46,183 bases of DNA from Polyangia bacterium (GCA_039916065.1 JBDSME010000630.1:1-46183), one strand, 5' to 3'; shown: positions 5,650 to 36,845, counted from the stretch's first letter. Made by a program: numbers and translations. The notes: a model not told the origin generated them from the sequence alone.

Positions 5650-5650
5650 C

Positions 5651-10305: not shown

Positions 10306-11262
10306 TTAGCCGGGCTTGTGGGCCTCGATGAATAGGGAGTCGGCGAAGTAGCGCAGAGGCCGGAATTTCGCCGACACCCTGCACAAGGCGACTGACGCGC
10401 TTACCACCAGTCGCGGGAAAGGGGGCAGCAGGTCAACGTCGCTGACCTGAGGATTCAGCGTAAAAAACCCGTCTGGGGTCAGAGTGGCCGGACCTACGTT
10501 TTCGCGAAACGCCGACAGCAGTTGCCAGGGCAACCACCGGCGCACCCGAAAGATGCCGTTCTCCCCATGCGTCAGGTCGACGATCTGATTGTACATCTGG
10601 CGAAGCCCCAGGACGTTGGCCATCTGGATCAGCATAGTCCCGCCCGGCTTCAGCACTCGCTCGGCCTGACGCAGCGTCGCTTCGACGTCCGGTCGGGAAA
10701 AGTGCTGCAATACCGAATACGAAAAGACCACGTCGAAGGTGTCCATGGGAAAGGGGAGATTTCGTCCGTCGGCCACCAGAAATTCGGGCGAGGCCCCCAG
10801 TTGTCGCGATACGCGCCGCGCTGCCTCCACGGCCTTGAGGTTCGGGTCGATACCGGTGGCCTGGAACCCAACCCGCTGGGCGGCGATGCACCATCGTCCC
10901 CAGTTGCAACCGATGTCCAGGACGCGGCGACCGCCCCCGTCGGACATTGGAAAGCGCGGAATGGGATACCGGGTCAGCTTACCCAGCAAGCCCCGGTACA
11001 GGTTTCCATTGGTATTGATGATCTCGCCCTGGACGAAGGGGTCGATGACGCCCGACGGGGGGGCGCTTCCCTCCGCGGAGACGCCGTTGGTGGCAGTGGC
11101 GCGCGACTCGTCGAAGGCCCGATGGTTCGCGACGACGTCATCGCGCAAGAGGATGGGAATATCCTGGACCACCGCATAGCGGTGCCCCTGGCGACAAGAA
11201 TAGGCGGACTGCTCCACTGACAACGGGGTTCCGTCCTTCGGGCACACCAAGGGCACACGCAT
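10306..11262 (-). CDS. Class I SAM-dependent methyltransferase with N-terminal Trm112-like zinc-ribbon
   Basis: LVCPKDGTPL...YSCRQGHRYAVVQDIPILL is followed by motif I VLDIGCNWGRW, then FDVVFSYSVLQHF and LKPGGTMLIQ. ATG 11262 is preferred; the ORF is open to TTG 11301. Confidence 0.75.
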   Translation of the reverse strand: MRVPLVCPKDGTPLSVEQSAYSCRQGHRYAVVQDIPILLRDDVVANHRAFDESRATATNGVSAEGSAPPSGVIDPFVQGEIINTNGNLYRGLLGKLTRYPIPRFPMSDGGGRRVLDIGCNWGRWCIAAQRVGFQATGIDPNLKAVEAARRVSRQLGASPEFLVADGRNLPFPMDTFDVVFSYSVLQHFSRPDVEATLRQAERVLKPGGTMLIQMANVLGLRQMYNQIVDLTHGENGIFRVRRWLPWQLLSAFRENVGPATLTPDGFFTLNPQVSDVDLLPPFPRLVVSASVALCRVSAKFRPLRYFADSLFIEAHKPG

Positions 11263-11387
11263 TACGAACGGCAAGATAGGAGTCGACCCCCCATGCGTCA
11301 AGGATCCGCTTTTTCGTGGCGGAGCGCTTGCCGCCCGATCGGCATGGCTTAAGATTCGTCGCGCCGCCGTTCGAAGCCCGTAACGTC

Positions 11388-12590
11388 ATGGCAATCACAC
11401 CCGTCATGCGCGTTGCTTACGTCCATCCGTTCACGCAGCAACTGAGCGGACCCGATGAGAGCCTGCTCGCCCTGTTGGCGCCGCTGTCGAGGCTGAACGT
11501 GCGGGCCCACCTGGTGGTTCCGCGTGCCACCCCCCTGGCGAACCGGTATCGGGCGCTGGGCGTAACTCTGCACCAGCAGCCCCTGACCATCCTGCATCGC
11601 GGGATGAAGCCCGGCGAAACGGCGCTGTTCGGCCCCCGCCTGGTGATGCGTGCGGCGCGACTGGCCAGACTGCTGCGCGATATTGACGCCGATCTGGTGC
11701 ACACGAACATGGAGGTCGTCCTGGAGGGGGCCCTAGCCGCACGGATGGTGGGGCTGCCCCACGTGCTGCACTACCGCGGCAACAGTCTCGATTCGCCACG
11801 CCTCCTGTTCGACGTTCTGACCCTGGTCTGGGCCTCGCTCTCCGACCGCGTATTCTGCATTTCTGACGCTACGGCGCAGATTTTTCGCGTCCGCAAGCGG
11901 GACAGAAACGTGGCCGTGCTCTACAACCCTATTCCGGTGAGAGCGTTCGCGGAGACTGTTCGCTCCGAGGCGGTGCGGGCCAGTCTGGGTGCCGCGCCTG
12001 ACCAGCCGCTGGTGATCACCATGGGGCGCATTCACCCCCGCAAGGACATCGAGACGTTTGTGCGTGCCTGCGGCCTGGTGGCGGCGGCAATGCCCCAGGC
12101 GCGTTTCGCGGTCGTGGGGACCGCCGAGACGCCGGTGGAGTTGACCTATCACGCGCAGGTCCTGAAACTGGTGGACCAACTGGGCGTAGGCGGACGGCTG
12201 CTGTTCGTCGGCGCGCGATCCGACGTCGCTGCCGTGATGAAGGCGGCGGACGTATTCGTGCTGGCCTCGCGTCACGAGGGATTTGGGCGGGTGGTGGCCG
12301 AGGCGATGGCGGCGGGCACTGCGGTGGTGGCGACCCGCGAGGGGGCACTCCCAGAGCTGATCGACGAGCCGCGCTTCGGCCTGGGCGCCGTCCCCGATGA
12401 CGCCGGCGACTTCGCCCGGCAGATTCTGTCACTGCTGGGGGACGACCAGCTGCGGCTGGCCACCGGCAGGGCGGCGGCGGACCGGGCACGAGATTTCGAC
12501 GCCGCAACACTGGCCCAGCGGGTCCGGGAGTGTTACGACGAGTTACTCGATGGCCGTGGCGAAACACGGCGAAACGCCCCTATTCAGTGA
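11388..12590 (+). CDS. GT-B glycosyltransferase, family 4-like
   Basis: MRVAYVHPF...; SRHEGFGRVVAEAMAAGTAVVATREGALPELI. Start is ambiguous: GTG 11316, ATG 11388 or ATG 11406. Confidence 0.8.
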   Translation: MAITPVMRVAYVHPFTQQLSGPDESLLALLAPLSRLNVRAHLVVPRATPLANRYRALGVTLHQQPLTILHRGMKPGETALFGPRLVMRAARLARLLRDIDADLVHTNMEVVLEGALAARMVGLPHVLHYRGNSLDSPRLLFDVLTLVWASLSDRVFCISDATAQIFRVRKRDRNVAVLYNPIPVRAFAETVRSEAVRASLGAAPDQPLVITMGRIHPRKDIETFVRACGLVAAAMPQARFAVVGTAETPVELTYHAQVLKLVDQLGVGGRLLFVGARSDVAAVMKAADVFVLASRHEGFGRVVAEAMAAGTAVVATREGALPELIDEPRFGLGAVPDDAGDFARQILSLLGDDQLRLATGRAAADRARDFDAATLAQRVRECYDELLDGRGETRRNAPIQ

Positions 12591-12618
12591 ATCGCCTTAA
12601 CCTATACTGTCCACCGTT

Positions 12619-14385
12619 GTGACGACGAATATTCTTGGTCTGAATGCCTTTCATGGAGATGCCTCGGCGGCTCTCCTCACGGACGGAGCACTGGTCGCTG
12701 CGGTCGAGGAAGAGCGCCTGAACCGCCGCAAGCACTGTGCCGGCTTTCCTGCCCTGGCGGCCAAGGAGGTGCTGCGCATCGGGGGAATCGGCCCCGATGA
12801 CCTCGATCACGTGGCCATCTCTCGCGACCCCAAGGCCAACCTCCACAAGAAGGTACTGTTCGCGCTACAGAAGCGCCCCTCATTCACCAAGCTGGTCAAG
12901 GATCGTCTGGCCAACGTCGCCAAGGTGCGCGACGTCCGCGACACGCTGGCCGCGGCACTGGGAGTTACCGAGTTCCGGGCCCGGCTGCACAACGTGGAGC
13001 ATCACAAATCCCACATTTCCAGCAGCTTCTTCGTTTCCCCCTTCGAAGAGGCAGCCTGTCTATCCATCGATGGGTTCGGCGACTTCGTCTCCACCATGCG
13101 CGCGGTCGGACGCGACCGACGAATCGATGTTCTCGACCGCATTGAATTCCCGCATTCAGCCGGCCTGTTCTATACCGCGATCACACAGTTCCTCGGGTTT
13201 CACAAGTATGGCGAGGAATGGAAAATGATGGGCCTTGCGCCGTACGGCAAGCCGTCCTACGTCCAGCAGCTGCGACAGGTGATTCACCCGACGGACGGCG
13301 GGCGTTTCGAGCTGGACCTCCAATATTTTCGCCACCATAGCGAGGGTGTTGAGATGACCTGGGACGACGGTGCCCCACACATGGGACTCGTCTACTCACC
13401 AAAGCTGGCTGAGTTGCTGGGGCCGGCCCGTGACCCCGAAGATCCGGAGTTCTATGGCAAGTGGGCCGATTTGGCGCACAGCGCGCAGGTCGTGTACGAG
13501 GAAATCTTCTTCCACGTCGTGCGAGACCTGCAACAGCGCACCGGGCTGACCCGCCTGGCCCTGGCGGGAGGCTGCGCGCTCAATTCGGTGGCCAACGGAA
13601 AGATCTACGAACAGACCGGATTCCGCGAGGTCTTTGTGCAGCCGGGCGCCGGTGACGACGGCACCGCTATCGGCGCCGCTTTGTACGTGGCACACAGCGT
13701 TCTCGATCAGCCGCGCGGCTTCGTGATGTCTCACGCCTACACCGGCCCGCAGTTCGACGACGCGCAGATCCAGGCTGCCATCGAAGCAGCGCGCAGCAAG
13801 GGATGGGATCCCGCCATTCGCGTAACCCAGTTGCGTGAGCCGGAACTTTACGAGCAGGTGGCGACCGCCATCGCAGATGGCCGGGTGGTGGGGTGGTTTC
13901 AGGGGGCCATGGAGTTCGGTCCCCGAGCGCTAGGCAACCGGTCCATTGTCGCGGATCCGCGCCGGAGCGACATGAAGGACATCCTGAACCAGCGCATCAA
14001 ACACCGCGAGACTTATCGTCCCTTCGCGCCCAGCATCCTCGAGGAAAAGGTGGGTGACGTGTTCGAACGTTCGGAAGCGTCTCCCTACATGTTGATGGTC
14101 TACAAGGTGCGGGAGCACCAACGGGCCAAGCTGCCCGCCGTCACACACGTCGATGGGACGGGCCGGCTACAAACCGTAAGCGCAAAAAGCAATCCGCGTT
14201 ACCATGGCCTCATCTCCGCCTTCGACCGCCTCACCGGCGTCCCTCTCATCTTGAACACCAGCTTCAACGAGCACGAACCGATCGTGACAACGCCGACAGA
14301 CGCAATTAACTGTTATTTGAAGACACGCATGGACTTATTGGCTTTGGGTAATTGGGTTCTCGACCGGCGCCAACCCGGCGCGTAG
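12619..14385 (+). CDS. Carbamoyltransferase, NodU/CmcH family
   Basis: [44 protein letters not shown] and the C-terminal [11 protein letters not shown]...[11 protein letters not shown]...[12 protein letters not shown] are characteristic of NodU-type O-carbamoyltransferases. GTG start. Confidence 0.85.
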
Positions 14386-14392
14386 GGCAGGT

Positions 14393-15997
14393 ATGCGTTC
14401 CGCAGCTGTCGCCTTCGTCCTGTCGATGCTCTCGGCAGCGCTCCTGACCCCATTAATCCGTGAACGGGCGCTGCGGATGGGTGCCGTGGACCACGCGCTC
14501 TCGTCCCGCAAGATCCACGGCCGCCCCATTCCCCGATTGGGCGGGCTGGCCATTGCCTGTGCTTTCTACGCGCCACTGCTGGGCCTGATGGTGTTTCAGA
14601 GCAGCGTGGGAGCTTTGTTTCTGGCCCAGCAGAAACTAGCCATTGGCCTGATCCTGGGCGGGACCGCCATCGTGTTGCTGGGCGTCTACGATGATCTGCG
14701 GGGGGCTGGTGCCCGCCGCAAGTTCGCCGTGCAATTCGCCGTCGCAGGGCTGATGTACGCGATGGGGTTCCGTATCGACGGCATGGCAAATCCGTTCGGC
14801 GCCCCCATCCAGATCGGCTGGTTCGGCCTGCCGCTGACCCTGTTGTGGATCGTCGGGATCGTGAACGCGATGAACCTGATTGATGGGCTCGACGGCCTGG
14901 CCGGAGGGGTGGCACTGGTGGCGGTCACCGCGACCTTGCTCATCTCCGTGCAGCGCGACAACCCCCTGATGACGCTGTTCTGCGCCGCTTTGGGCGGCGC
15001 CATCCTGGGCTTCCTCTTCTACAACTTCAACCCCGCATCGATCTTCATGGGCGACACGGGGAGCATGTTCCTGGGCTTCATTCTGGCAACCACGTCCATC
15101 CAAACTAGCCAGAAGGCGTCCACCACTGTCGCCGTTCTGGTCCCTCTGATGCTGCTGGGTGTTCCTATCCTGGATACTCTGCTGGCGGTGAGCCGCCGCG
15201 CCATGCGTGGCCGACCGCTGTTCCGCGCTGATCGGGAACACATCCACCACCGGCTGTTGGCGATCGGCCTGTCGCACCGGCAGGCGGTGCTGGTCCTGTA
15301 TGGCGTCTGCGTGCTCTTCGCCGCCACGGCCCTGGTGCTGACCGTAGCGAACAGCCGCCTGACCACCGTGACACTGGGTGTTGTAGCCATCCTTTCATTT
15401 ATCTTTCTGCGGCGGCTTGGCTACATGCGTTTTCGATACGGGACGGTGCTGTCCGACCATCGCCGGCGCAGCCGGGATCTGCGCGCCCTGGTGCGCCCAT
15501 TCGCGGAGCGGCTCCGAAATACCAAGGCTCCCTCCGAGATCTGGCAGGTGGTGCGGGATTTGGCCGAGGCGTTCGGCGCATGCAGCGCAGCGCTGCAACT
15601 CGGCGAACCATCAGTCGGCGGTAAAACGGAGGGCGGCCCCCAGGACACCCAGCCGATGAGCGGCAGCCACGGCCGCGCCGGCACGCAGAACCGTATGAAC
15701 GACGGCGTCGTTACGTTTTCCGCAGCCGCTTCGGAGGCCACCGGCGCAGCGATGGGCGACCATTCGCCGCCTCTTCCCAAGCCCCTGTTCCACGCCCGTT
15801 TCGGCCTGATCGGCATGAAGCACGACGAGGGGCTCCTCGAGCTGACCTGGGATGACGGTCGAACGGCCCTGGACCGCGACACCGAGATCAGCCTCGAGCT
15901 GTTTTGCGACCACGTCGCCTCTGCCTATGAGCGCACCCGGTACAAGCCCGACAAGGACACAGGGCGGGTGTTGAAGCTGCCCACCAGCGGCGGCTGA
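14393..15997 (+). CDS. Polyprenyl-phosphate HexNAc-1-phosphate transferase (MraY/WecA family) with a C-terminal cytoplasmic extension of about 190 aa
   Basis: [36 protein letters not shown] and HIHHRL motifs, with about 10-11 TM segments up to roughly aa 335. A non-membrane tail then runs from about 15400 to 15997. Confidence 0.85.
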
Positions 15998-16016
15998 CCG
16001 TCAAGGTTGGCGCCTC

Positions 16017-16229: not shown

Positions 16230-16235
16230 CCACCG

Positions 16236-18002
16236 ATGCGGGACGCGTTCATCCATGTCGCGCTATTGCTCTGGACGGCGCTGGTCTGGACGCTGGGTGG
16301 TTTCCGGATCTGCTCGGCCCGCCTGAGGCGGGAAGAGCCGCTGCTGGTGGTGGCGACCTCGGCTGGACTGGGCGCCGGGCTCACCGCCATCCTGCTTACG
16401 GTGGTGGCGGCGCTGCGGCTGCTGACGCCGGCGGTGATCTGGGGAATTCAACTGGGTTGGACGGTGCTCGCGATTTCGGCGGCCCACCGCCTTGCCGCAC
16501 CCCTGCTCCGGACCTGGCGCGCGCACGGCGGCCGCCCGCTCCGCGCCTGGCGGGTGTGCCTGGGAGTTTTGCTGGCGATCACGGCGCTGGCGACACTCCT
16601 CACGACGCTCGCGCCGCCCACCTCGCTGGACGCCACGGTGTATCACCTGCGCATTCCCCGCGAGTTCTTGCGCATGCATCGCCTGGCGCCCATTCGCGAC
16701 GACGTGCGAATGTTCCAGCCGCTTTACGTGCAGATGCTGTTCGCTTCGGCAATGGGGTTGAAGGACGACATTCTGGCGGCGTTGCTTCACTGGTTCCTTG
16801 GTGTGGCCACGGCGCTGGCTACGGGCGCCTGGGCACGACGGCTGGGAGCGCGTTCATCGTTGGCCGCAGTGGCGATCTTCGTACTCAGCCCACTGGTCAT
16901 CTGGGAAGCGACCTCCTGCTTCATCGATTTTGGACTGACACTGGCCACGGCCCTGGGACTGCTGTGGGCCAGTCGCCCCGATCGCGGCACGCCAGCCCTG
17001 GCGCTGGCGACACTCTTCGCGGGCCTGGCTGCGGGTAGCAAGTTTACCGGGTGCGCATCGGCGGCCCTCATCGGGCTGATGGCGGCGCTGGCTCTCTGGC
17101 CGGACCGGCGTGCCGCGCTGATCCGCCTGCTGGTGGTGGGGACCGGCGCTCTGGTGGTGGCGGCACCCTGGTACATCCGCAACGCCATCCTGACCGGTAA
17201 TCCCGTATACCCTCTGGCCAACCCCCTGTTCGGTGGGCCACCGGTGCCACTGTCCAGCTGGCACTATGGATTCGGCCACGACCTGCTACACCTGTTGACT
17301 TCCCCCTTCGATCTGCTTGTGCGCGGCGACGAGTTTGACTCCGGCTGGGCCACGGGGCCGGCCTACCTTGCCCTTATTCCGGTCGCTCTCCTCACCCGCC
17401 GCCGCACCAGGATCCGGCTGGCTGCCGCGGGCGTCATCGCGCTCCACTGGCTGTTCTGGTTCTACTCCAGCCCTCAAACCCGCCTGCTGTTGCCCATCTT
17501 TCCCCTGGCGGCGGCGCTGGCCTCGCTGGGGCTGGAGAAGGCGTTGGCATCCGGTTTCTGGACGCGTTGGGCTGCATACGGGTTGCTGGCGATCAGCTTC
17601 GGAGTGGGACTGGGGACGGCGTTGATCACTGCTCGTGGCTCGGCGCGCATGGCGCTGGGCCTGGAGAGCCGGGACGCCTTCCTGCACCGTATGACCTGGG
17701 ACTACGAGGCGTACCAACAGACGAACCGTCGCCTGAGTTCCAGCGCGCGTCTGGCCGTGTTCGGTGTCAGCAACGTCTACTACCTATCCCCGCCCACCAC
17801 CGTCGTCGACCACGACAATACCGTCAAGCTGCGGGCGAAGGGCTTTTCCCACCTGCTGCGCGTGCGCAACTGCGAGAGCGATGAGTTGCACGCCGGCGAA
17901 GCGGTGATCTGGCACGGCAAGTACATGAATCCCGGCTCGCGCTTCCAGGGGACGTATCCGGACCACCACCTCTGCGCGCAGCTGGTTGACCTGGCACCGT
18001 GA
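16236..18002 (+). CDS. Polytopic membrane protein, GT-C-fold glycosyltransferase-like (PMT/ArnT, GT39/83-like)
   Basis: About 12 hydrophobic segments. First loop PPTSLDATVYHLRIPREF resembles the acidic-residue/aromatic loop of PMT_2-type enzymes. Soluble C-terminal tail of about 100 aa. Confidence 0.55.
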   Translation: MRDAFIHVALLLWTALVWTLGGFRICSARLRREEPLLVVATSAGLGAGLTAILLTVVAALRLLTPAVIWGIQLGWTVLAISAAHRLAAPLLRTWRAHGGRPLRAWRVCLGVLLAITALATLLTTLAPPTSLDATVYHLRIPREFLRMHRLAPIRDDVRMFQPLYVQMLFASAMGLKDDILAALLHWFLGVATALATGAWARRLGARSSLAAVAIFVLSPLVIWEATSCFIDFGLTLATALGLLWASRPDRGTPALALATLFAGLAAGSKFTGCASAALIGLMAALALWPDRRAALIRLLVVGTGALVVAAPWYIRNAILTGNPVYPLANPLFGGPPVPLSSWHYGFGHDLLHLLTSPFDLLVRGDEFDSGWATGPAYLALIPVALLTRRRTRIRLAAAGVIALHWLFWFYSSPQTRLLLPIFPLAAALASLGLEKALASGFWTRWAAYGLLAISFGVGLGTALITARGSARMALGLESRDAFLHRMTWDYEAYQQTNRRLSSSARLAVFGVSNVYYLSPPTTVVDHDNTVKLRAKGFSHLLRVRNCESDELHAGEAVIWHGKYMNPGSRFQGTYPDHHLCAQLVDLAP

Positions 18003-18131
18003 CAGAAAAAATGCACCGGCAGGTATTCCCGGCTTTACGGCCGTGGCGGGTGCCGCCACCGCGTGGTATCAAAACCGCGGGTCCGACCAGGGCGGAGTCC
18101 CTGCGCCGGTCCGTCACCTCCACCGTCCTCG

Positions 18132-19091: not shown

Positions 19092-19116
19092 GCTGCGGCG
19101 CCAGACCCTTCTTCCC

Positions 19117-22207: not shown

Positions 22208-22380
22208 TCGGAGTTCACCTGCGCGGTAGGGCGAACAACCGGAAACCGGGGCAGCCGCACCTCAAGACGATATTTTCGCGGCAGCTTACATGACGGCGAT
22301 CGCGGTCGCCATGTGCCTGCAGCCGATGCGGAGCTCCCTTGACACCGACGCTCCACGAAGGCCAATCTGACGCCGTTACG

Positions 22381-24349: not shown

Positions 24350-24370
24350 TACTCGCACCGCCACCTAGTG

Positions 24371-28502: not shown

Positions 28503-28578
28503 GCGCCCGCCGCCAATTGGCGGGCACCCGTTGGCCACGGGTGGACGTTGGGTAGACGCTAAACTAAACTGCCGCCCC

Positions 28579-29310: not shown

Positions 29311-29337
29311 AAGCACGGCAGCACGCCGACAGGATTG

Positions 29338-30093: not shown

Positions 30094-30106
30094 GCGTCCG
30101 CCGCCG

Positions 30107-31630
30107 CTAACCTCGCTGCCGCCGCACCGACGAGAGCACCAACCGCCGGGTGCGTGCGAAATCTTCCCGCAATAACAGGTGCGCCAGCCCCGCATACAGC
30201 GGCACCCCGGTAACGATGCCCACCGCCAGGCCCCAGCGGTGATTGGCGGTGCCGGTGAGCCGCTGCATCAATTCAACCCCCGCCGCCATGAGCATTGCCG
30301 CCAGAAGGGGTCGAATGGGGGCCCGCAATACCGCGATCCGCTGGCGCGCGTTCTCCGCGGGCACCACCAAAAATACCACCACATTGACCGCGCTGATGAT
30401 GGTCCACGCCGCCACGAACGCCTGGAGGGTTCCGAACCAGGCGGCCGCGCCGTAGCCGATCCAGGCCAAAGGGATCATGAACAGGCCCAGACGCAACAGC
30501 GTCCCCGAGCGTCCCTGCGCCATGAGCCATGCGATAGGCAGGGACGCCAGCGGCTCGACCGAGGCGCCGACCGCGAAGCCTTTCAGGGTGGGCGCGAGCT
30601 GGGCCCACGAAGGGGAGAGCACGGCGACCAGCTCGTCGGCTACGGCGAACACGCCCCAGGCGATAGGCGCGATACATATCGCCAGCGTGCGCAGGGCAAT
30701 GACGTACGAACGCGATCTCTCCGCCGGGGGAACCCGCATGATGCTTGGCAGAAAGACGGATGAAAAAGCCGTGCCCACTTTTTGCGTCGATAGGGCGACT
30801 AGCTTCATCCCCATGCTCAACAGACCTACCGCGGTCGCCCCCGCCACCCTCCCCAGCAAGAATGTGATGGGGAACCAGGCCACGGCGATGGCCAGGGCGA
30901 ATCCGGACAGATTCGCCCCGAACGCCGACAGCTCCCGGGCCAGAGGCCGTGAAAACTGCCGCGGCACCACGCGGATCGGCGCCGCCAGGACGTACATGAA
31001 CGTCATAATCGCCGGCGCCACCAGCGTAGAGATGGCCAGGCTCCATCCCCCGGCGCCGCGCGACGCCGCCACGATGCCGCAAGCGGAAGCGATCACCGCC
31101 GCTACAATTGCCACAACGGAGAGGGCGCGAAAGCGAAGCTCGCGAGCGAGGTGGGCGAACGATGGCCGCGAGGGTGCCATGAGAAAGAAGTTGGCCGCCA
31201 GGACGGCCGCCATCACCCCCACCTCGCGGCTACCGAAATAGAACCCCATGACCGGTGCTGCCGCCAGCGCCGCCAAGCTGAGGCCCGCCCCTCCTATCAT
31301 GCCCATGGTGAAGCCGGTGGTCTCCTCCACTGGCCCAAGCCGGGGGCCACGGATCAACGCGAAGCTCAAACCACCGTCACCAAACACCCCGAAGAACGTG
31401 ACCACCGTCGAAGCCATCCCGAAAATGCCGTAGTCCGTGGGACGCAGCCAGACCGTAAGGAGGCCCGCGCTGGCCAGCCCGATCAGAGTGGACAGCACCT
31501 GCGAGAAGACGTTCCACAGCGTCGATCTGGTGGCGGACACCGCCAAAGACGTTCCAGGAGCCGACTCCTCCTGCGTCCTTCCTGTCGCCGCGTCGCGCGC
31601 CTGTCCGGCCACCTCCGCGGGGCCACTCAT
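30107..31630 (-). CDS. wzx: Wzx-type flippase (MOP superfamily, polysaccharide biosynthesis protein)
   Basis: About 12-14 TM segments. The N-terminal region TLWNVFSQVLSTLIGLASAGLLTVWLRPTDYGIFGMA is typical of Polysacc_synt proteins. ATG 31630 is preferred; the upstream extension is Arg/Ser-rich and unlikely. Confidence 0.75.
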   Translation of the reverse strand: MSGPAEVAGQARDAATGRTQEESAPGTSLAVSATRSTLWNVFSQVLSTLIGLASAGLLTVWLRPTDYGIFGMASTVVTFFGVFGDGGLSFALIRGPRLGPVEETTGFTMGMIGGAGLSLAALAAAPVMGFYFGSREVGVMAAVLAANFFLMAPSRPSFAHLARELRFRALSVVAIVAAVIASACGIVAASRGAGGWSLAISTLVAPAIMTFMYVLAAPIRVVPRQFSRPLARELSAFGANLSGFALAIAVAWFPITFLLGRVAGATAVGLLSMGMKLVALSTQKVGTAFSSVFLPSIMRVPPAERSRSYVIALRTLAICIAPIAWGVFAVADELVAVLSPSWAQLAPTLKGFAVGASVEPLASLPIAWLMAQGRSGTLLRLGLFMIPLAWIGYGAAAWFGTLQAFVAAWTIISAVNVVVFLVVPAENARQRIAVLRAPIRPLLAAMLMAAGVELMQRLTGTANHRWGLAVGIVTGVPLYAGLAHLLLREDFARTRRLVLSSVRRQRG

Positions 31631-31839
31631 CGCTGCACGGCGCCAGATTCCGACCGAATCGGAAAAGGAGCCGAAGCCAATGGGCGCCGCGGCCGCCCTT
31701 CCGGCGCCGCGCTGGACGTGCCTTGAGGACAGACGTCGTCGACTCTTGAGCCGGGGCGTGGTTCTGGTAACGTGCGCGGAGCCATGGCGTGGACCAATTT
31801 CCGAAGATAGCACCTCGTCCAGCACGCCCCCCGCAATTC

Positions 31840-33018
31840 ATGAAAAACAAGATCAGTGTCGCTGTCATCGGTGGCTGTGGCCACGTCGGACTTCCGCTCA
31901 GCATCGCGCTGGCACAGCATTTCCCCGTTCACATCGTCGATGTGGACGTAGCGGCTGCCAAGCTGGTGAGCTCGGGCATCGTCCCCTTCCGGGAGGAAGG
32001 GGCGACCGAGCAGCTCCAGGCGGTAATCGGTAAGACCCTGAACGTCCACACCACTCCGGAGATCATCTCTGACGTCAGCCACGTCGTGGTGGTGATCGGC
32101 ACCCCCGTGGACGAGCACTTGAATCCAGATTTCACTCTCTTCGACCGGGTACTCGATCAACTGGGGAGTCACCTGCGCAGCGGTCAGACCCTGATCCTGC
32201 GCAGCACGATTTTCCCAGGAACAACCGCCCGCGTGGCGCGGCTGCTCAGCGACCGCGGTCTGGCCGTACACGTCGCGTTTTGTCCGGAGCGTGTCGCCGA
32301 AGGGTTCGCCCTGCGAGAAATTCGCGACCTGCCGCAGATCGTGTCGGGCGCCACTCCCGAGGCGATCGCGTCGGCGCGTTCGCTGTTCGAGAAAATCGGT
32401 CCCGAGCTGATCGACCTGCCAGCCGAAGAAGCCGAAGTGGCCAAGCTGTTCACGAACGCCTGGCGGTACATCAGCTTCTCGGTGGCCAACCAGTTCCAAA
32501 TGATTGCCAGCGAACGTGGGCTCTCCTTCGCCCGTATCCTCAAGGCCATGAAGCATAACTACCCGCGCGCCCAGGCCATGCCGGGACCGGGGTTTGCCGC
32601 CGGGCCCTGCCTGTTCAAGGACACCATGCAACTGGCCGCCTACGCCGACAACCAGTTCTTCCTGGGTCACGCGGCGATGTTGATTAACGAGGGAATGCCC
32701 CGCTTCCTGGTCGATCGGGTGCGGGCCAAGCACCCTGATCTGGCACAACGGACGGTGGGGATCCTGGGAATGGCATTCAAGGCGGGCAGCGACGACACGC
32801 GCGAATCGCTCAGCTACAAGCTGAAGAAGGTGCTGCAAATCGAGAGCCGCACCGTGCTGACCACCGATCCCTATGTCACAACCGACCCCACCTTGAGCCC
32901 CCTGGCGGAGGTGCTGACTCGGTCCGATCTGCTGGTGGTGGGCGTACCCCACCCCGAATACCGCGACCTGCCCTCGTCAAACAAACCTATTTACGATTTG
33001 TGGAACAGCCGCTGTTAG
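31840..33018 (+). CDS. NDP-sugar 6-dehydrogenase (UDP-glucose/GDP-mannose dehydrogenase family), substrate unassigned
   Basis: MKNKISVAVIGGCGHVGLPLS (Rossmann fold), catalytic-Cys region GFAAGPCLFKDT, and C-terminal GMAFKAGSDDTRES. Confidence 0.8.
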   Translation: MKNKISVAVIGGCGHVGLPLSIALAQHFPVHIVDVDVAAAKLVSSGIVPFREEGATEQLQAVIGKTLNVHTTPEIISDVSHVVVVIGTPVDEHLNPDFTLFDRVLDQLGSHLRSGQTLILRSTIFPGTTARVARLLSDRGLAVHVAFCPERVAEGFALREIRDLPQIVSGATPEAIASARSLFEKIGPELIDLPAEEAEVAKLFTNAWRYISFSVANQFQMIASERGLSFARILKAMKHNYPRAQAMPGPGFAAGPCLFKDTMQLAAYADNQFFLGHAAMLINEGMPRFLVDRVRAKHPDLAQRTVGILGMAFKAGSDDTRESLSYKLKKVLQIESRTVLTTDPYVTTDPTLSPLAEVLTRSDLLVVGVPHPEYRDLPSSNKPIYDLWNSRC

Positions 33019-33037
33019 GCGCCGCAAGAAAGCACCC

Positions 33038-34057
33038 ATGAGGACCTTAGTCACTGGAGCAAGTGGTTTCATCGCCGGATACCTGGTAGCCGACCTGCTC
33101 GAGCACGGCCACGAGGTGGTAGGACTGGACAACCTGTCCAAATACGGCCCCGTGGAGAAGAGCTACTCCAAACACCCGCGCTATCACTTCGTCGAAGGAG
33201 ACGCCAAGGACGTCGCCCTGATGAAGAAACTGATTGCAGACTGCGATCATTTTGTGGCGGGCGCCGCCATGATTGGTGGCATTTCGTATTTTCACGAGTT
33301 TGCCTACGACCTGCTGGCGGAGAACGAGCGCATCATGGCTTCATCGTTCGACGCCGCCATCGCCGCGCACAAGGCGGGCCGCCTCAAAAAAATCACCGTG
33401 CTCTCCAGCTCGATGGTGTTCGAGAGTTCCGAGATGTTTCCTTCCAAGGAGGGTGATCAGTTTCGGGTGCCCCCTCCCCGCTCCACCTATGGGTTTCAAA
33501 AACTTGCGTGTGAGTACTACGCCAAGGGGGCACTGGAACAGTACGGGCTGCCGTACACGCTCTGCCGTCCCTTCAACTGCGTGGGCATCGGTGAGGCGCG
33601 CGCCAAGACGGGACGCGATATCATGAGCGGCAATGTCTCGTTGGCCATGAGCCACGTGGTGCCTGACCTGGCGCAGAAGCTGTTGCGCGGCCAGGATCCA
33701 TTGCACCTTCTCGGCAGCGGCAGCCAGGTCCGCCACTACACCTACGGCGGCGACCTGGCCCGAGGCATACGGCTGGCCATCGAGAGCGCGGCCGCCACCA
33801 ACGACGATTTCAATCTTTCCAGCCCCGTCGGCCACACCGTTCTGGAGCTCGCAGAGGCTATTTGGAAGAAGCTCAACCCGGGAAAGCCGTTCCGCTACGT
33901 GTCGGACAAGCCATACGAACACGACGTGCAATGCCGGGTTCCCGACGTGGCAAAAGCCAAGGCAGTGCTGGGATTCGAAGCGAACACGACGCTTGAGGAC
34001 ATGCTCGACGAGGTACTTCCCTGGATCCGGGCCCAGGTCGCCTCCGGCGCCATTTGA
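33038..34057 (+). CDS. NAD-dependent epimerase/dehydratase (extended SDR)
   Basis: LVTGASGFIAGYL, and a catalytic S...YGFQK (YxxxK) motif. 339 aa, 19 nt downstream of the dehydrogenase. Confidence 0.8.
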   Translation: MRTLVTGASGFIAGYLVADLLEHGHEVVGLDNLSKYGPVEKSYSKHPRYHFVEGDAKDVALMKKLIADCDHFVAGAAMIGGISYFHEFAYDLLAENERIMASSFDAAIAAHKAGRLKKITVLSSSMVFESSEMFPSKEGDQFRVPPPRSTYGFQKLACEYYAKGALEQYGLPYTLCRPFNCVGIGEARAKTGRDIMSGNVSLAMSHVVPDLAQKLLRGQDPLHLLGSGSQVRHYTYGGDLARGIRLAIESAAATNDDFNLSSPVGHTVLELAEAIWKKLNPGKPFRYVSDKPYEHDVQCRVPDVAKAKAVLGFEANTTLEDMLDEVLPWIRAQVASGAI

Positions 34058-34060
34058 TCG

Positions 34061-35152
34061 TCAGCGATCCTCGTCTACTCCGCCAAGGCCGGTGACGCTG
34101 CGGCGGATGATGCCGGCGACACTGCGCGAAAACGATTCATAGTTCAAGCCCCCGTCGACCAGCGCGCGGGCCCGTCGGCCCATTGTCGCGGCGGCATCGG
34201 GGTGATCGGTGAAGAATCGCAGGGCCTCGCACCAGCCGTTCACGTCACCGGCCTCGACCCATCGCCCAATGCCCATCTCCTCCACATCGAGGTCGATACC
34301 CGGATTGCGGGTCATGATGACGGGCTTTCCCGCCCCGAGCGCATCGAGCAGGCTGGTCAGGCCGCACAATCCGTCCTGCGCGACCATAGGGATGGCCAAC
34401 GCCCGCGCCTGGGAAAACATTCGGGCCGTAATCCGGTACTCCAAGAATTGGCGGGGCGCCATCAGGCGCACGGTGGGACCGAACGCGCCGAACACCGGCT
34501 GAACGCTGGACTCCGGGCAGAGGATGGTGGCCGGAACGGCGACCTGGGTCGCGGCACGACCGAAGGTCACAAAATCGCGGGCCGTGCGTCCCGCGGCCAG
34601 GATCCCCTCGCCGGGATACTCCGCCTGGGGATAGAAACTTGCATGCGGCCCCCAGCGCAACGCCGTGGCGATGGGACGGTTCGGTGACAGGCCATTCGCC
34701 TCGACCGCCACTCTCTCGCTGAGGGTAGGCAACGCGGCCAGCCCCCGCAGCATCAGGCGGGCGAAAGGGCGCGTCACCGTGCCCAGCCGCCCCCGCACCA
34801 GCGGGTGATGCGCCAGACAAACCAAAGGCGCCCGAATCAGACCCAAGGCGCGCAGGTAGCTCAGGGCCTGGATCTGAGTCTGGCAGGCGGCGTAGATGAC
34901 GTCCGCGTCGCCGAGCATCCCCAGCGCCGCCACCTGCCTATCGATGCTCCCGATGATCTCGCGCGATCGGTTCAGGCGGCGGTCCAACGCCGCCAGCCAG
35001 CGTGAACGTTCCTCGGACAGGAGCGTCACCTGGAATCCGTGCGCCGCCAGGTAGTCGGTCCCGTACAGAAAATGCAGAGGCGACTCTCCGCTATTCCCGG
35101 CGTCCCAACTTGCGCGCAGCGAGTAGTCGTTGACAACCAGGGCCCGGATCAT
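34061..35152 (-). CDS. Glycosyltransferase, GT-B-like (divergent GT4)
   Basis: MIRALVVNDYS...; C-terminal GLCGLTSLLDALGAGKPVIMTRNPGIDLDVEE resembles the GT-B donor-binding half. Weaker match than the other GTs. Confidence 0.6.
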   Translation of the reverse strand: MIRALVVNDYSLRASWDAGNSGESPLHFLYGTDYLAAHGFQVTLLSEERSRWLAALDRRLNRSREIIGSIDRQVAALGMLGDADVIYAACQTQIQALSYLRALGLIRAPLVCLAHHPLVRGRLGTVTRPFARLMLRGLAALPTLSERVAVEANGLSPNRPIATALRWGPHASFYPQAEYPGEGILAAGRTARDFVTFGRAATQVAVPATILCPESSVQPVFGAFGPTVRLMAPRQFLEYRITARMFSQARALAIPMVAQDGLCGLTSLLDALGAGKPVIMTRNPGIDLDVEEMGIGRWVEAGDVNGWCEALRFFTDHPDAAATMGRRARALVDGGLNYESFSRSVAGIIRRSVTGLGGVDEDR

Positions 35153-35169
35153 CTGCGCTACAGATCCGC

Positions 35170-35997
35170 TTATGAGGGAACGACGTGCTCGCGCGGCAGC
35201 TTGGTCATGCCTTCATCGGTGATCGAGCCGGCGGGGATGGCGCTGACATTCGACCCCTTCTCGATGAAGACGATGCTGTGGTAGCAGTGCACCCCTACGA
35301 CGCTGCTATCGAACTCTCCGGCCGCTCGCGTGGCGGACCGAATGTCCTCGTAGTGCAGCCCGTCCAACAGTTGCTTCACGAACCCCATGGTGGTGCGGGT
35401 ATCACTCAAGTCATCGGACGACCCACCAAAGGTATCCCAGTAGGATGCGTGGGTGTCCTCGATCACGTAGATACCGTCGTCGGCCAGCAGCGGAAACAGC
35501 ACCTGGAACGACGCGATCACGTGTTCGCTGATGTGGCTGCCATCGTCGATGATCACGTCAGGGCGACCAATGGTTGCGACGACGTGGCGGAGAAAGTCGG
35601 GATCCGCCTGGCTACCCTGAAAGGTGCGCACCCTCCCGCTGTCGTGCGGTGACTTGTTGTAGATGTCCACGCCAGCGACGCGGGCCCGGGGCAGATAGGT
35701 CTCCCACATCCGCAGCGATCCGCCGCCGGCCACCGGCGTATCGTAGCCACCGATTCCGATCTCCAGCAGGTTGAGACGGCGCGCCCGCAGAGGTCCGAAG
35801 TGCCGCTCGTATAAGGGGTAGTACCAGAGGTGCTTGCCGGCATTGAAAGTCTCGCCAATCCCGCGCAGGCTGCGCGGGTGACGCACCGTCGTCGACAACC
35901 TCTGCACCTTCCAGTAGGCCTTGCGCAGCCGCGCAATTTCCGCCGGTCCCAGATGCGCTTTCAGCAACTGCCGAAGTGGCTCTGTGATCGACTTCAT
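35170..35997 (-). CDS. Class I SAM-dependent methyltransferase (sugar O-methyltransferase-like)
   Basis: LNLLEIGIGGYD...GGSLRMWETYLPRARVAGVDI...VIIDDGSHISEH...DDGIYVIEDTH. From memory this resembles deoxysugar O-methyltransferases, but that is not verified. ATGA overlap with the upstream MT. Confidence 0.7.
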   Translation of the reverse strand: MKSITEPLRQLLKAHLGPAEIARLRKAYWKVQRLSTTVRHPRSLRGIGETFNAGKHLWYYPLYERHFGPLRARRLNLLEIGIGGYDTPVAGGGSLRMWETYLPRARVAGVDIYNKSPHDSGRVRTFQGSQADPDFLRHVVATIGRPDVIIDDGSHISEHVIASFQVLFPLLADDGIYVIEDTHASYWDTFGGSSDDLSDTRTTMGFVKQLLDGLHYEDIRSATRAAGEFDSSVVGVHCYHSIVFIEKGSNVSAIPAGSITDEGMTKLPREHVVPS

Positions 35998-36845
35998 GGA
36001 CCTTCACTGGCTGGTTTCAGCGACTCTCCTGGGGATGAGGCGGGGCGCAACACGGCCGCGAAATGGGTATGCAGCTTGCGTCTCAGCGCCGGTGGTGTCC
36101 GCACCGTGACCCGTTCCACCAGGTTCACCAACGACCTGGGCAAGAACGGCAACAACAAACCCGACTTCAAGTGTCCCTGTGTCAACGGGTTGGTGAAAAT
36201 TCGCAATTCGGCCACGCACAATCCCGCCTGACCAGCCAGCCGATACAGCTCGTCTTCGTGCAAGAGGAAGATGTGCCCGTCGGAGTCCGGCTTGAACTGA
36301 TCCTTTTCAAACAGCGACGGGTCCGGGCAGTCGGAAAACCGAGGCAATCGGTTGCGGAAGTAGCCCCCATTCGGGGTGGTCATGATGATGACCCCTTGAG
36401 GCTTGACCAGTGTGGCGATGCGCCGCAGGAACTGGTCGGGGTGGGCCACGTGCTCGATCACCTCGGCGATCAAAACAGCGTCGAACTTATCGATCGGTGC
36501 AGGGAGATCCAACACGTTACCGGCACAGTAGTGGACCACGCCGCATTCCCACTTGGCCCTTACATAATCGGCCAGCTCCTCGCGCAGGTCATTCCAGGTC
36601 ACGTCGTACCCAGCCTCGGCCAACCGCAAGGTGAAGTTTCCTTGCGCCGCCGCCACGTCCAAAATTCGCGCGCCGGTAGGCACGGCGCGCCGGATCATGT
36701 CGAAGGTGTTGTCCGCCCGGGCCTGGTACGCGTAGGCGTAGCCCCGCATCTCCGGGGAAACCTGGCCGAACACTTCGGCCTGATCGAAATAGTGGCTCTG
36801 TTTCCAGCTTTCGGGCCAGGCGCTGTCGCGAACGGGCGACTTCAT
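35994..36845 (-). CDS. Class I SAM-dependent methyltransferase
   Basis: ARILDVAAAQGNFTLRLAEAGYDVTWNDL, FDAVLIAEVIEHVAHP, VKPQGVIIMTTPNGGYFRN. ATGA overlap with the gmd stop. Confidence 0.75.
   Translation of the reverse strand: MKSPVRDSAWPESWKQSHYFDQAEVFGQVSPEMRGYAYAYQARADNTFDMIRRAVPTGARILDVAAAQGNFTLRLAEAGYDVTWNDLREELADYVRAKWECGVVHYCAGNVLDLPAPIDKFDAVLIAEVIEHVAHPDQFLRRIATLVKPQGVIIMTTPNGGYFRNRLPRFSDCPDPSLFEKDQFKPDSDGHIFLLHEDELYRLAGQAGLCVAELRIFTNPLTQGHLKSGLLLPFLPRSLVNLVERVTVRTPPALRRKLHTHFAAVLRPASSPGESLKPASEGP

Follow-up and report, generated by a model that had tools for sequence, protein, structure and literature searches.

Nine methyltransferase domains in a Wzx/Wzy-type locus of an uncultured Polyangia: a surface polysaccharide probably O-methylated at several positions

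The EPS, BPS and MASC of Myxococcus xanthus are made by Wzx, Wzy and a PCP with tyrosine-kinase function, with a probable separate outer-membrane beta-barrel. To our knowledge, no methyltransferase complement comparable to the one reported here has been described for these loci. Among mycobacterial products, the glycolipids GPL and PGL have four to five methyltransferases, several of which act on one 6-deoxyhexose; we know of none among GPL, PGL, MGLP and MMP that is made via Wzx, Wzy or Wzc. The methyltransferases of Pseudomonas aeruginosa CPA are partially redundant. In Tannerella forsythia, three methyltransferases account for two methyl groups (PMC6120980). Mycobacterial MMP is almost fully methylated with only two methyltransferases (PMC9883506).

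The locus and its pathway

The window analysed (the whole 46-kb contig, 46,183 nucleotides) comes from an uncultured Polyangia (Myxococcota) MAG. Pfam and NCBIfam identify one large Wzx/Wzy-type polysaccharide locus on this contig, with a Wzc, a WecA-like initiator, approximately 10 glycosyltransferases, a carbamoyltransferase, an amidotransferase and a GDP-mannose 4,6-dehydratase-like enzyme (GMD). Its features are as follows:

1542-2777 (-), 2885-3637 (+), 5651-6814 (-), 18063-19091 (+), 19117-20568 (-), 20984-22207 (-), 23156-24349 (+), 25733-26959 (+): glycosyltransferases (Pfam)
3754-5766 (-): asparagine-synthase-type amidotransferase (PF00733, E-value: 2e-78; TIGR03108, 416 bits, cut-off of 817 not reached)
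8057-10252 (+): Wzc-type polysaccharide co-polymerase with a tyrosine autokinase domain (Pfam Wzz, GNVR and AAA_31; TIGR01007, 193 bits)
11316-12590 (+): GT4 glycosyltransferase (Pfam)
12619-14385 (+): carbamoyltransferase (PF02543, PF16861)
14393-15997 (+): WecA/MraY-family initiating phospho-N-acetylhexosamine transferase (PF00953, E-value: 2e-42; TIGR02380, 144 bits, under the cut-off)
24368-25729 (+): Wzy-type polymerase (PF04932 Wzy_C, E-value: 1.3e-8; seven hydrophobic segments)
30107-31825 (-): Wzx flippase (PF13440, E-value: 4e-43; 10 hydrophobic segments; called as 30107-31630 in L001)
31789-33018 (+): nucleotide-sugar dehydrogenase
33038-34057 (+): NAD-dependent epimerase/dehydratase
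34061-35152 (-): GT4-like glycosyltransferase downstream of MT7 (weak Pfam GT1-group matches)
36842-37852 (-): GMD (PF16363, 285 bits; TIGR01472, 237 bits, equivalog cut-off of 415 not reached)
37889-40657 (-): 922-aa Wzy_C-domain membrane protein with C-terminal TPR repeats (PF04932, E-value: 1.2e-16; weak TPR match)

The initiating transferase, Wzx and Wzc are each encoded once in the window, where the coding strand changes six times or more and approximately 11 transferases are encoded in all, as are two more polytopic membrane proteins (a 588-aa LIC_10190-like protein and one of 560 aa). No OPX/Wza exporter was found on the contig. The 922-aa protein appears to be ligase- or polymerase-like, the amidotransferase probably functions in uronamide formation and the GMD-like enzyme is the predicted source of 6-deoxyhexose. 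The carbamoyltransferase represents a second kind of decoration on the glycan.

The methyltransferases

Eight genes in the window encode nine methyltransferase domains, of which two are FkbM-type, six are class I and one is a MycE/TylE-type sugar O-methyltransferase:

10306-11301 (-): MT1, class I SAM methyltransferase (Pfam Methyltransf_25/11, E-value: 2e-23)
20232-20987 (-): MT2, FkbM-family methyltransferase (PF05050, E-value: 2.5e-11; TIGR01444, 65.6 bits, cut-off 37.7, full model length)
22339-23031 (+): MT3, class I SAM methyltransferase (Pfam Methyltransf_23, E-value: 8e-13)
26940-28502 (+): MT4, FkbM (aa ~57-196) and class I (aa ~313-453) fusion (Pfam FkbM at aa 60-196, E-value: 1e-14; Methyltransf_23/12/25 at aa 313-453, E-value: 6e-18)
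28579-29310 (+): MT5, divergent class I methyltransferase (Pfam Methyltransf_25, marginal, 29.7 against 27 bits)
29338-30093 (+): MT6, class I SAM methyltransferase (Pfam Methyltransf_23/11, E-value: 6e-16)
35170-35997 (-): MT7, short MycE/TylE-type metal-dependent sugar O-methyltransferase (3ssm, E-value: 2.5e-56; 8ia9, E-value: 7e-47)
35994-36845 (-): MT8, class I SAM methyltransferase (Pfam Methyltransf_23/11, E-value: 4e-17)

An earlier note made from the DNA had listed eight such ORFs with nine SAM-methyltransferase domains, two of them FkbM-type, in a glycan locus. All eight ORFs were found at the coordinates it gave or a few codons away, the FkbM-type domains are MT2 and the N-terminal part of MT4, and the total of nine is borne out by Pfam, NCBIfam, PDB homology and a structural model of MT5. 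Seven of the eight ORFs exceed the Pfam threshold (MT5 marginally) and MT7 falls below it. All nine domains show a recognisable motif I together with an acidic residue at post-I, and the SAM sites look intact. The longest ORFs with ambiguous starts span 10306-11301, 22339-23031, 28531-29310 and 29335-30093; the starts at 28579 and 29338, which the earlier note had used, were also chosen when genes were called independently on identical Logan contigs.

Pairwise identity among the nine domains is at most 34% and is confined to the Rossmann core, which indicates that they are not recent duplicates and would be expected to have distinct specificities. No domain reached the level of an NCBIfam equivalog, and for eight of the nine the matches are all of a generic kind, to class I or FkbM; the best NCBIfam similarities are to UbiG, ArsM and BioC types, all far under the cut-off. 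Neither signal peptides nor transmembrane helices were found in the methyltransferases, except for a hydrophobic C-terminal stretch in MT3 (aa 198-216, hydropathy 2.11). Inside the glycosyltransferase operons, the methyltransferase genes are dispersed among GT, Wzy and GMD genes; starts and stops overlap by 4 bp at GT4e/MT2, GMD/MT8 and MT8/MT7. The GC3 of the methyltransferase genes (0.76-0.81) matches that of their neighbours.

MT1 (motif I VLDIGCNWG, post-I GID; alternative start at 11262) has Wzc on one side and a GT4 gene on the other. Its N-terminus contains a weak Zn-ribbon-like segment. MT2 has the motifs LLDVGAFHG, ELEPD and KIDVEGAE, and it overlaps the flanking GT4 ORFs both upstream (by 4 bp) and downstream. 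MT3 (motif I VLDIGCGEG) is the first gene of the plus-strand run MT3-GT4-Wzy-GT4-MT4-MT5-MT6. Among the best 150 of 1.84 billion representatives, no protein other than the window's own extends across the two halves of MT4; the window's protein is present identically in two Logan assemblies, and the NCBI version (482 aa) retains both domains. MT6 has the motif I VDLGCFSG and the post-I GYD. MT8 is joined by its 4-bp overlaps to GMD upstream and MT7 downstream.

MT5 is a member of a family (>200 clusters) of ~230-aa proteins that is conserved and as yet uncharacterised, whose homologues adjoin GT4, Wzx and Wzy genes and whose alignment has the invariants SxSGxGS, LDAPCGDxxW, Y.G.D and CRDxxxH. 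Its AlphaFold model (pLDDT 88.8) gives 792 Foldseek matches in the PDB at an E-value of 1e-3 or lower, and all 50 of those listed are methyltransferases or have a methyltransferase fold. In Pfam, MT7 has a sub-threshold match to CmcI/Methyltransf_24 (E-value: 3e-3). Its PDB homologues MycE (3ssm) and TylE (8ia9) are both solved sugar O-methyltransferases, and MT7 corresponds to the catalytic domain only. The conserved active site of MycE consists of Tyr208, Asp275, His278 and Asp304 (PMC9275233). MT7 residues Y85, D152, H155, E180 and D181 align with MycE Tyr208, Asp275, His278, residue 303 and Asp304, and are invariant or nearly so among 31 family members.

Abundance and occurrence in relatives

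The window has the highest methyltransferase count (eight genes, nine domains) among approximately 170 comparison loci. In a baseline of 80 loci anchored on GDP-mannose dehydratase, home-made HMMs, which may overlook other methyltransferase families, gave 28 matches in 1.43 Mb (0.0196 per kb), so that the window density is ~17-fold over baseline (Poisson P for at least nine in 26.5 kb: 5e-9). These HMMs recovered all seven methyltransferases of locus L088 (six flagged by Pfam and a MycE-like one), and a Pfam spot check of 110 ORFs from eight zero-scored loci found no methyltransferase family with three or more matches. Two or fewer methyltransferases are present in 76 of the 80 baseline loci, in agreement with the typical zero to two cited in the earlier note. 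The rarity that it implied is overstated, as L088 has seven in 20.8 kb and L135 has six in 11 kb.

Three relatives (L003, L004 and L006) have a core in common with the window at 50-78% identity. This conserved core consists of Wzc, the WecA-like initiator, the carbamoyltransferase (77-78% identical to its L003 and L006 counterparts), the AsnB-type amidotransferase, several GT4/GT2 proteins, Wzy, the Wzy_C-TPR protein (39% identical to its L004 homologue), GMD and one class I methyltransferase of the MT4-C type. Close relatives have only this one methyltransferase gene; MT1, MT2, MT3, the N-terminal half of MT4, MT5, MT6, MT7 and MT8 have no tblastn match in the three loci (for MT1, at E-value cut-offs of 1e-5 to 1e-8). 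Because the relatives have the core with a single methyltransferase, the remaining ones in the window are likely to have been accreted. The core would have been enlarged in the window's lineage by extra glycosyltransferases and seven further methyltransferase domains, which would stem from no fewer than four lineages unrelated to one another (FkbM, MycE/TylE, the MT5 family and generic class I). Elsewhere, homologues of MT4-C, MT5 and MT7 occur in glycan loci, often right behind a GT2 gene or fused to it. The MT8-MT7-GT cassette is also present in L088 (44% GC) at 44-56% identity, the product of 34061-35152 being 44% identical over 359 aa to that of the L088 gene adjoining the MT7 homologue.

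Proposed methylation and comparison with known systems

The best reading of the locus is probably O-methylation of a lipid-linked repeat unit at multiple sites; the methyltransferase count, the highest in the comparison, suggests that the surface sugar is methylated at many positions. We infer the acceptor, timing, number and distribution of the methyl groups as follows. The nine domains would work as tailoring enzymes in the cytoplasm, soluble or peripheral to the membrane, and each would most likely read one sugar or position context on the undecaprenyl-PP-linked repeat unit. SAM would supply the methyl group for a hydroxyl, or possibly a carboxyl, once the corresponding sugar has been attached and while the unit still awaits flipping by Wzx. 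A cassette for adding a 6-deoxyhexose and methylating it appears to be formed by MT7, MT8, GMD and the GT4 gene beside them. The locus is predicted to make a heteropolysaccharide with a long repeat, O-methylated at several distinct positions as well as carbamoylated and amidated. N-methylation, which the earlier note had also allowed, is unlikely because Pfam and NCBIfam found no sugar aminotransferase in the window.

It is possible, if less probable than multi-site O-methylation, that the polymer is only locally methylated, with partly redundant enzymes placing methyl groups on one or two 6-deoxyhexoses, perhaps as di- or tri-O-methyl fucose or rhamnose in side branches or caps. GMD is directly coupled to MT8-MT7-GT4, the target of characterised MT7-family methyltransferases is the 2-OH of 6-deoxyallose or rhamnose, and redundancy is documented in T. 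forsythia and P. aeruginosa CPA. However, the six other methyltransferase genes are spread across three other operons up to 25 kb from GMD and adjoin different GT4/GT2 genes, which fits different acceptor sugars. It is fairly unlikely that the window combines two or more separate glycan pathways (such as EPS and an O-antigen or protein glycan), each with an ordinarily methylated product. The two Wzy_C proteins and the two other polytopic proteins, the number of transferases, the strand switches and the division of the locus into a core and an accessory part are consistent with such an arrangement, but the initiating transferase, Wzx and Wzc are single, and L004 has both Wzy_C proteins together with its one methyltransferase, which argues that both are part of one conserved system.

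The earlier note had proposed that almost every residue is methylated, which would give a near-permethylated, hydrophobic, hydrolase-resistant polymer. Nine domains against approximately 11 transferases, with a mutual divergence that suggests different sites, point in this direction, yet the conclusion does not follow from gene count: the T. forsythia and MMP cases imply that the number of genes tracks how many different acceptor sites there are, or redundancy, rather than how heavily the product is methylated, and P. aeruginosa CPA likewise breaks the link between enzyme number and the fraction of residues methylated. The sharing of one 6-deoxyhexose by several enzymes in GPL and PGL also speaks against this reading, as do the uronic-acid, amide and carbamoyl functions, which predict a polar polymer; near-permethylation is considered quite unlikely. 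There is little reason to expect that several of the enzymes act off-glycan (on lipid, protein or small molecules) or are inactive paralogues in a variable region. Generic class I signatures and the sub-cut-off UbiG/ArsM/BioC similarities would allow this, but the genes are tightly embedded among and translationally coupled with GT genes, their SAM motifs are intact, their GC3 matches that of their neighbours and unrelated bacteria also have homologues of them in glycan loci. The suggestion that some are non-reducing-end chain terminators like WbdD is highly improbable. MT8 weakly matches WbdD (4azw, E-value: 8e-3) and the related methyltransferase-rich loci L087 and L088 contain Wzm/Wzt, but Pfam and NCBIfam found no ABC transporter (Wzm/Wzt) in the window, where Wzx, Wzy and Wzc are present and the co-polymerase would set chain length, and none of its methyltransferases has a kinase or coiled-coil ruler domain in Pfam.

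The enzyme families and the pathway are all already known, and smaller methyltransferase-rich clusters also occur elsewhere. The uncharacterised environmental glycan loci L088 and L135 have a similar mix of FkbM, class I and MycE-like enzymes, and L088 has homologues of MT7 (49%), MT8 (56%) and GT4h (44%). Unlike the window, L088 has Wzm/Wzt and a GC content of 44%, L135 has LicD and a nucleotidyltransferase, and both lack the FkbM-class I fusion and the Polyangia core.

MT7 resembles MycE, TylE and ThnM1 (Mg-dependent deoxysugar O-methyltransferases of actinomycete natural products) in its catalytic domain and in adjoining a 6-deoxyhexose pathway gene, but it lacks their ~190-residue N-terminal auxiliary domain and lies in a Wzx/Wzy polysaccharide locus rather than a macrolide cluster. 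This short subfamily comprises 2877 clusters, mostly without Pfam annotation. The pathways of M. xanthus belong to the same phylum and follow the same logic, whereas the window has a WecA-type PNPT initiator and no OPX on the contig. WbdD (E. coli O8/O9a) and PA5457/PA5459 (P. aeruginosa CPA) are also class I methyltransferases of O-polysaccharide loci, but they cap non-reducing ends in ABC-transporter pathways. The mycobacterial GPL, PGL, MGLP and MMP sets likewise achieve heavy methylation by several regiospecific SAM O-methyltransferases that modify 6-deoxyhexoses or hexoses once these have been transferred (for the methylated polysaccharides, PMC9883506), although MMP is a cytoplasmic homopolymer. 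The 27-kb general protein O-glycosylation cluster of T. forsythia is similar in having class I methyltransferases among glycosyltransferases, Wzx-type assembly on a lipid carrier and methylated uronamide sugars (PMC6120980). Its three methyltransferases serve a protein-linked decasaccharide, whereas the Polyangia locus combines eight methyltransferase genes with a Wzy polymerase and a Wzc.

Composition of the locus and its export pathway

The window, with a GC content of ~64% over its 46,183 bp, contains one large polysaccharide locus according to Pfam and NCBIfam scans that took in essentially every long, high-GC3 ORF. Its genes are also present in two Logan assemblies (SRR26386590 and SRR26386593). 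The gene order is as follows, where MT1 to MT8 are the eight methyltransferase ORFs.

Gene order of the polysaccharide locus
Locus start, in order: epimerase/dehydratase, GT4, GT2, AsnB-type amidotransferase, GT4, NTP_transf_5 protein
8057-10252, after the NTP_transf_5 gene: Wzc-type co-polymerase/tyrosine kinase (Wzz/GNVR/AAA_31 and TIGR01007); then MT1, GT4, carbamoyltransferase
14393-15997: WecA/MraY-type initiating transferase (PF00953); then 9-TM LIC_10190-like membrane protein, GT2, GT4, MT2, GT4, MT3, GT4
24368-25729: Wzy (PF04932); then GT4, MT4, MT5, MT6
30107-31825: Wzx (PF13440); then nucleotide-sugar dehydrogenase, epimerase, GT4-like protein
Next in order: MT7, MT8, GDP-mannose 4,6-dehydratase-like enzyme (GMD; 36842-37852, -)
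Locus end: 922-aa Wzy_C-TPR protein, probable outer-membrane beta-barrel, secreted coiled-coil protein, 8-TM protein, inositol monophosphatase

The proteins that identify a Wzx/Wzy pathway (initiating transferase, Wzx flippase, Wzy polymerase and PCP [Wzc]) are all encoded in the window. The Pfam and NCBIfam scans found no ABC transporter (ABC_tran or ABC2_membrane), second initiating transferase or second flippase there. The XrtA/PEP-CTERM exopolysaccharide system was not matched in the window: TIGR03108 reaches only 416 of the 817 bits that its cut-off requires, TIGR03007, TIGR03018 and TIGR03017 are also under cut-off, and no exosortase was found. Among the scanned ORFs there is no Poly_export match for an OPX (Wza) protein, the gene for which may sit outside the contig.

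Two adjoining proteins without Pfam matches are candidates for outer-membrane export parts. The first (41175-42674, -; 499 aa) combines a signal-like N-terminus with a beta-rich sequence, ends in ...RVGITY and is probably an outer-membrane beta-barrel. The second (42553-43197, -; 214 aa) is a secreted coiled-coil protein. Both are kept in the related locus L004 (32% and 65%, respectively), as is the 922-aa protein (37889-40657, -), which carries TPR repeats at its C-terminus in addition to a Wzy_C (O-antigen ligase/polymerase) domain and ~10 membrane segments and could be a ligase or oligosaccharyltransferase instead of a second polymerase. The polytopic membrane proteins at 16236-18002 (+) and 43373-45055 (-) have 9 and 8 hydrophobic segments, respectively, and belong to no Pfam family; the former is weakly like the LIC_10190 family (NF047510, 43 bits, under cut-off). 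In relatives, the NTP_transf_5 "uncharacterised nucleotidyltransferase" gene (6882-7943, +) is retained next to Wzc and the core methyltransferase; it is joined to an epimerase in the related locus L003 (10906-12942) and, on the P0008 contig, has the methyltransferase as its neighbour. Taken at their longest, the amidotransferase ORF (3754-5766, -) and that of the upstream GT4 (5651-6814, -) overlap by 116 bp; because the Asn-synthase profile begins at residue 40 of the amidotransferase ORF, its true start is probably near 5650. Similarly, the GT4 ORF at 19117-20568 overlaps MT2, the actual start probably being near 20235.

The nine methyltransferase domains

The earlier note had claimed nine SAM-methyltransferase domains between 10306 and 36845, and both the eight ORFs and the nine domains are real, as indicated by Pfam/TIGR01444 matches, MycE/TylE homology, fold matches and SAM motifs. 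MT1, MT3, MT4-C (the class I half of MT4), MT5, MT6 and MT8 reach Pfam gathering scores, MT5 marginally; in all, seven domains in six ORFs are comfortably above these thresholds. The FkbM domains of MT2 (65.6 bits) and MT4-N (75.6 bits) match the full TIGR01444 model, which has a cut-off of 37.7, and the DxGAxxG and EGxE motifs of the FkbM family (TIGR01444/PF05050) are aligned in both. All nine domains show the glycine-rich loop of motif I and, where strand 2 ends, an acidic post-I residue; the loop is a variant in MT5 (DAPCGD, invariant across the MT5 family) and MT8 (DVAAAQG). A six-frame HMM scan of the window returns these nine domains only. Judged from their sequences, they are members of the class I/FkbM/MycE-like SAM-methyltransferase families, with SAM binding and methyl transfer predicted. 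Recent duplication as their source was ruled out, as no pair exceeds 34% identity, and that over the core only. Signal peptides and membrane spans are absent, and a hydrophobic C-terminal tail occurs in MT3 only. In MT1 (10306-11301, -), the N-terminal ~45 aa contain CPxxG...CxxGH ahead of the methyltransferase core and weakly match the RlmA Zn-ribbon (E-value: 9e-3); this segment may be a Trm112-like or Zn-ribbon module.

Because an NCBIfam equivalog scan of all eight methyltransferases gave only sub-threshold generic matches (UbiG, ArsM, BioC, MftM and NodS), acceptor assignment is impossible by this route. In a PDB sequence search, MT2 had no match, MT5 none better than an E-value of 0.06, and the matches of MT4 and MT8 were confined to generic class I; MT7 alone was informative.

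MT7 (35170-35997, -) is under the Pfam threshold. Its match to the solved sugar O-methyltransferases MycE (3ssm; E-value: 2.5e-56) and TylE (E-value: 7e-47) covers the whole catalytic domain. MycE has an N-terminal auxiliary domain, whereas MT7 is only 275 aa long and its match begins at MycE chain residue 200. This domain was reportedly found by Akey et al. in 2011 to be required for the tetramer and for substrate binding. As it is missing, MT7 is classed as a short relative of MycE and not as an orthologue. MT7 residues Y85, D152, H155, E180 and D181 align with MycE Tyr208, Asp275, His278, residue 303 and Asp304, and are invariant or nearly so in 31 homologues; the conserved MycE-family active site is made up of Tyr208, Asp275, His278 and Asp304 (PMC9275233). 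The methyl acceptor in this family is one hydroxyl of a vicinal diol that chelates Mg, on 6-deoxyallose or rhamnose (PMC9275233). Short MycE-like O-methyltransferases (~260 aa, no auxiliary domain) form 2877 clusters at E-values of 1e-10 or below in many phyla; most are without Pfam annotation, and glycan loci are their typical setting.

MT5 (28579-29310, +) only just passes its Pfam threshold (29.7 against 27 bits). Its family consists of well-conserved ~230-aa proteins (214 clusters at E-values of 1e-3 or below) with the invariant motifs SxSGxGS, LDAPCGDxxW, Y.G.D and CRDxxxH, as well as WRPINL..PPF. An AlphaFold model of MT5 (pLDDT 88.8, pTM 0.83) has 792 PDB matches at E-values of 1e-3 or below; all 50 of the matches listed either are methyltransferases or have the methyltransferase fold, among them ChlM, Hen1, NodS and phosphoethanolamine methyltransferases. 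The family is widespread and uncharacterised (Myxococcota, Acidobacteriota, Bacteroidota and archaea), with many members lacking a precomputed Pfam match. The closest relative of MT5 (74% identity) is found in a different arrangement, GT2-MT-MT5-acetyltransferase.

MT4 (26940-28502, +) fuses FkbM and class I proteins that elsewhere stand alone at ~240 aa each. Among the best 150 of 22,908 matches in 1.84 billion representatives, the window's own protein alone spans both halves, and the fusion thus appears to be unique within those 150; a few two-stretch proteins (P0280, P0362, P0368 and P0369) were also noted in the search. An identical 520-aa ORF in two other assemblies rules out an assembly artefact or frameshift, a reading also countered by the presence of both domains in one NCBI-annotated protein. 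In relatives, the homologue of the C-terminal half is found directly after a GT2 or joined to it.

Methyltransferase load and its likely assembly

Class I, FkbM and MycE-like HMMs were built from the window domains and iterated over all six-frame ORFs of fetched loci, which gave the main count; separate gene calls were chosen by GC3. The baseline consisted of 80 loci (1.43 Mb, 80 GTDB species) anchored on homologues of the window GMD. Methyltransferase matches numbered zero in 64 loci, one in 10, two in two and three in three, and a single locus had five hits (four genes). The HMMs recovered 7/7 methyltransferases of the environmental locus L088 (six Pfam-flagged and one MycE-like), and when 110 ORFs taken from eight zero-scored loci were scanned with Pfam, no methyltransferase family matched three or more of them. 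The HMMs are not grossly blind, and the earlier note's view that zero to two methyltransferases are usual in a glycan locus therefore holds (76/80 GMD-anchored loci have two matches or fewer). The window has 6 methyltransferases within GMD +/-10 kb (Poisson P 5e-6), 8 domains within 16.6 kb (P 2e-9) and 9 within 26.5 kb (P 5e-9).

MT-rich examples were found among loci anchored on MT7 homologues. In L088 (GCA_034691665.1, JAXMNJ012608815.1, 1-20801), 20.8 kb contain 7 methyltransferase genes (2 FkbM, 4 class I and 1 MycE-like) as well as Wzm/Wzt, GT2/GT4 and a Wzy_C protein. Four methyltransferases occur over 17 kb of a JGI contig that also carries Wzx, GT4s and GMD-like genes, and six over 11 kb of L135 (1-11135), where they are accompanied by LicD, a nucleotidyltransferase and GT4. 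The L135 nucleotidyltransferase is joined to a ParB_N-like domain, and DUF711 is also present. Of the 14 metagenome loci that are anchored on MT7 and reach 15 kb or more, 9 contain the anchor only and the maximum is 4. Because such MT-rich loci exist, the window is not unique and instead stands at the extreme of a sparse but genuine tail. Nothing directly comparable was found in the literature on MT-rich polysaccharide clusters or hyper-methylated myxobacterial polysaccharides, although coverage was incomplete and this negative is weak.

Three related loci, L003 (ENA), L004 (ENA/NCBI) and L006 (MAG MFD04540.bin.3.176), have a core in common with the window at 50-78% protein identity; in L006, GMD, the carbamoyltransferase and the WecA/MraY-family initiator PNPT are 76%, 78% and 69% identical, respectively. 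The core is composed of GT2a, AsnB, GT4b/c/f/g, NTP_transf_5, Wzc, carbamoyltransferase, PNPT, Wzy, Wzy_C-TPR and GMD, together with the beta-barrel and coiled-coil proteins. Each relative has one methyltransferase over ~21 kb, which in L003 and L004 is of the MT4-C type and directly follows a GT2. In tblastn searches of MT1, MT2, MT3, MT4-N, MT5, MT6, MT7 and MT8 against these three loci, no match was found. Because the nine domains are so divergent (at most 34% identity), the expansion came about by accretion of different genes and not by duplication. Homologues of MT7 (49%), the adjacent GT4 (44%) and MT8 (56%) lie within ~6 kb in L088 (10016-15752), whose GC content of 44% indicates a distant organism; the window counterpart is 34061-36845 (-). 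This arrangement points to a horizontally portable "transferase plus two methyltransferases" cassette, MT8-MT7-GT4.

Proposed product and comparison with known systems

SAM is cytoplasmic. Given this, the Wzx/Wzy/Wzc pathway and the lack of signal peptides or membrane spans, methylation is expected on nucleotide sugars or on a glycosylated intermediate. The latter would be the Und-PP-linked repeat unit, methylated ahead of flipping. Characterised analogues acting on glycosylated intermediates are MycE/ThnM1 (PMC9275233), the MMP enzymes (PMC9883506) and those of T. forsythia (PMC6120980). The 4-bp overlaps GT4e/MT2, GMD/MT8 and MT8/MT7 fit enzyme-by-enzyme coupling of glycosyl transfer with methylation. 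From the chemistry of the MT7 family and the position of GMD two genes upstream, the most concrete prediction is a methylated GDP-mannose-derived 6-deoxyhexose. Predicted uronic acids may be methyl-esterified, and the carbamoyltransferase and AsnB-type amidotransferase would add further decoration. N-methylation, which the earlier note had allowed for, is unlikely since no sugar aminotransferase was seen in the window.

Overall, the observation in that note is confirmed, and its interpretation as a hyper-methylated polysaccharide is supported in part only. Three T. forsythia methyltransferases put on two methyl groups (PMC6120980), the two methyltransferases of P. aeruginosa CPA show partial redundancy, and in MMP nearly every mannose is methylated, yet two methyltransferases suffice (PMC9883506). 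Gene number is thus not methyl number. The many divergent methyltransferases argue for either many distinct acceptor contexts or redundancy; their count establishes neither the methylation of almost every residue nor a hydrophobic polymer. We also leave room for more than one glycan product, which the ~11 transferases and two Wzy_C proteins of the window would accommodate; however, a single pathway is favoured by the presence of just one initiator, one flippase and one co-polymerase, and by the co-occurrence of both Wzy_C proteins in L004, which has only one methyltransferase. The suggestion that some methyltransferases terminate chains is not borne out, as it requires an ABC-transporter pathway, of which there is none in the window. 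WbdD-type systems combine an ABC transporter with a methyltransferase bearing a kinase or coiled-coil ruler, whereas the window methyltransferases carry no extra domains.

Bacterial glycan O-methylation is regarded as uncommon and sparsely used; it alters hydrophobicity, enzyme and phage resistance, and recognition by innate-immune lectins. A nine-domain locus with smaller similar loci in unrelated bacteria suggests that methylation is a main axis of glycan diversification in some environmental bacteria. It is conceivable, though we consider it unlikely, that the MT-rich loci (window, 9 domains; L088, 7; L135, 6) mark a recurrent, as yet undescribed class of surface polysaccharides with multiple O-methyl groups. 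Such loci would belong to uncultured soil and water bacteria, in which portable cassettes of a GT and one or more methyltransferases, MT8-MT7-GT4 among them, accreted onto conserved export cores. The Polyangia polymer would then have at least eight chemically distinct methyl positions per repeat and would be the most heavily methylated Wzy-dependent polysaccharide known. The locus also supplies a set of divergent sugar O-methyltransferases that are probably regiospecific, and its compact MycE-like enzyme and natural FkbM-class I fusion could serve glyco-engineering.

All of the enzyme families and the pathway are already known, and neither the pathway nor the enzyme folds are new in kind; as the organism is also uncultured, the locus has value as a lead and not as a discovery. 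What is unusual is the methyltransferase load, which is the highest among the compared loci, the FkbM-class I fusion and the evidence for assembly of such loads from portable cassettes on a conserved core.
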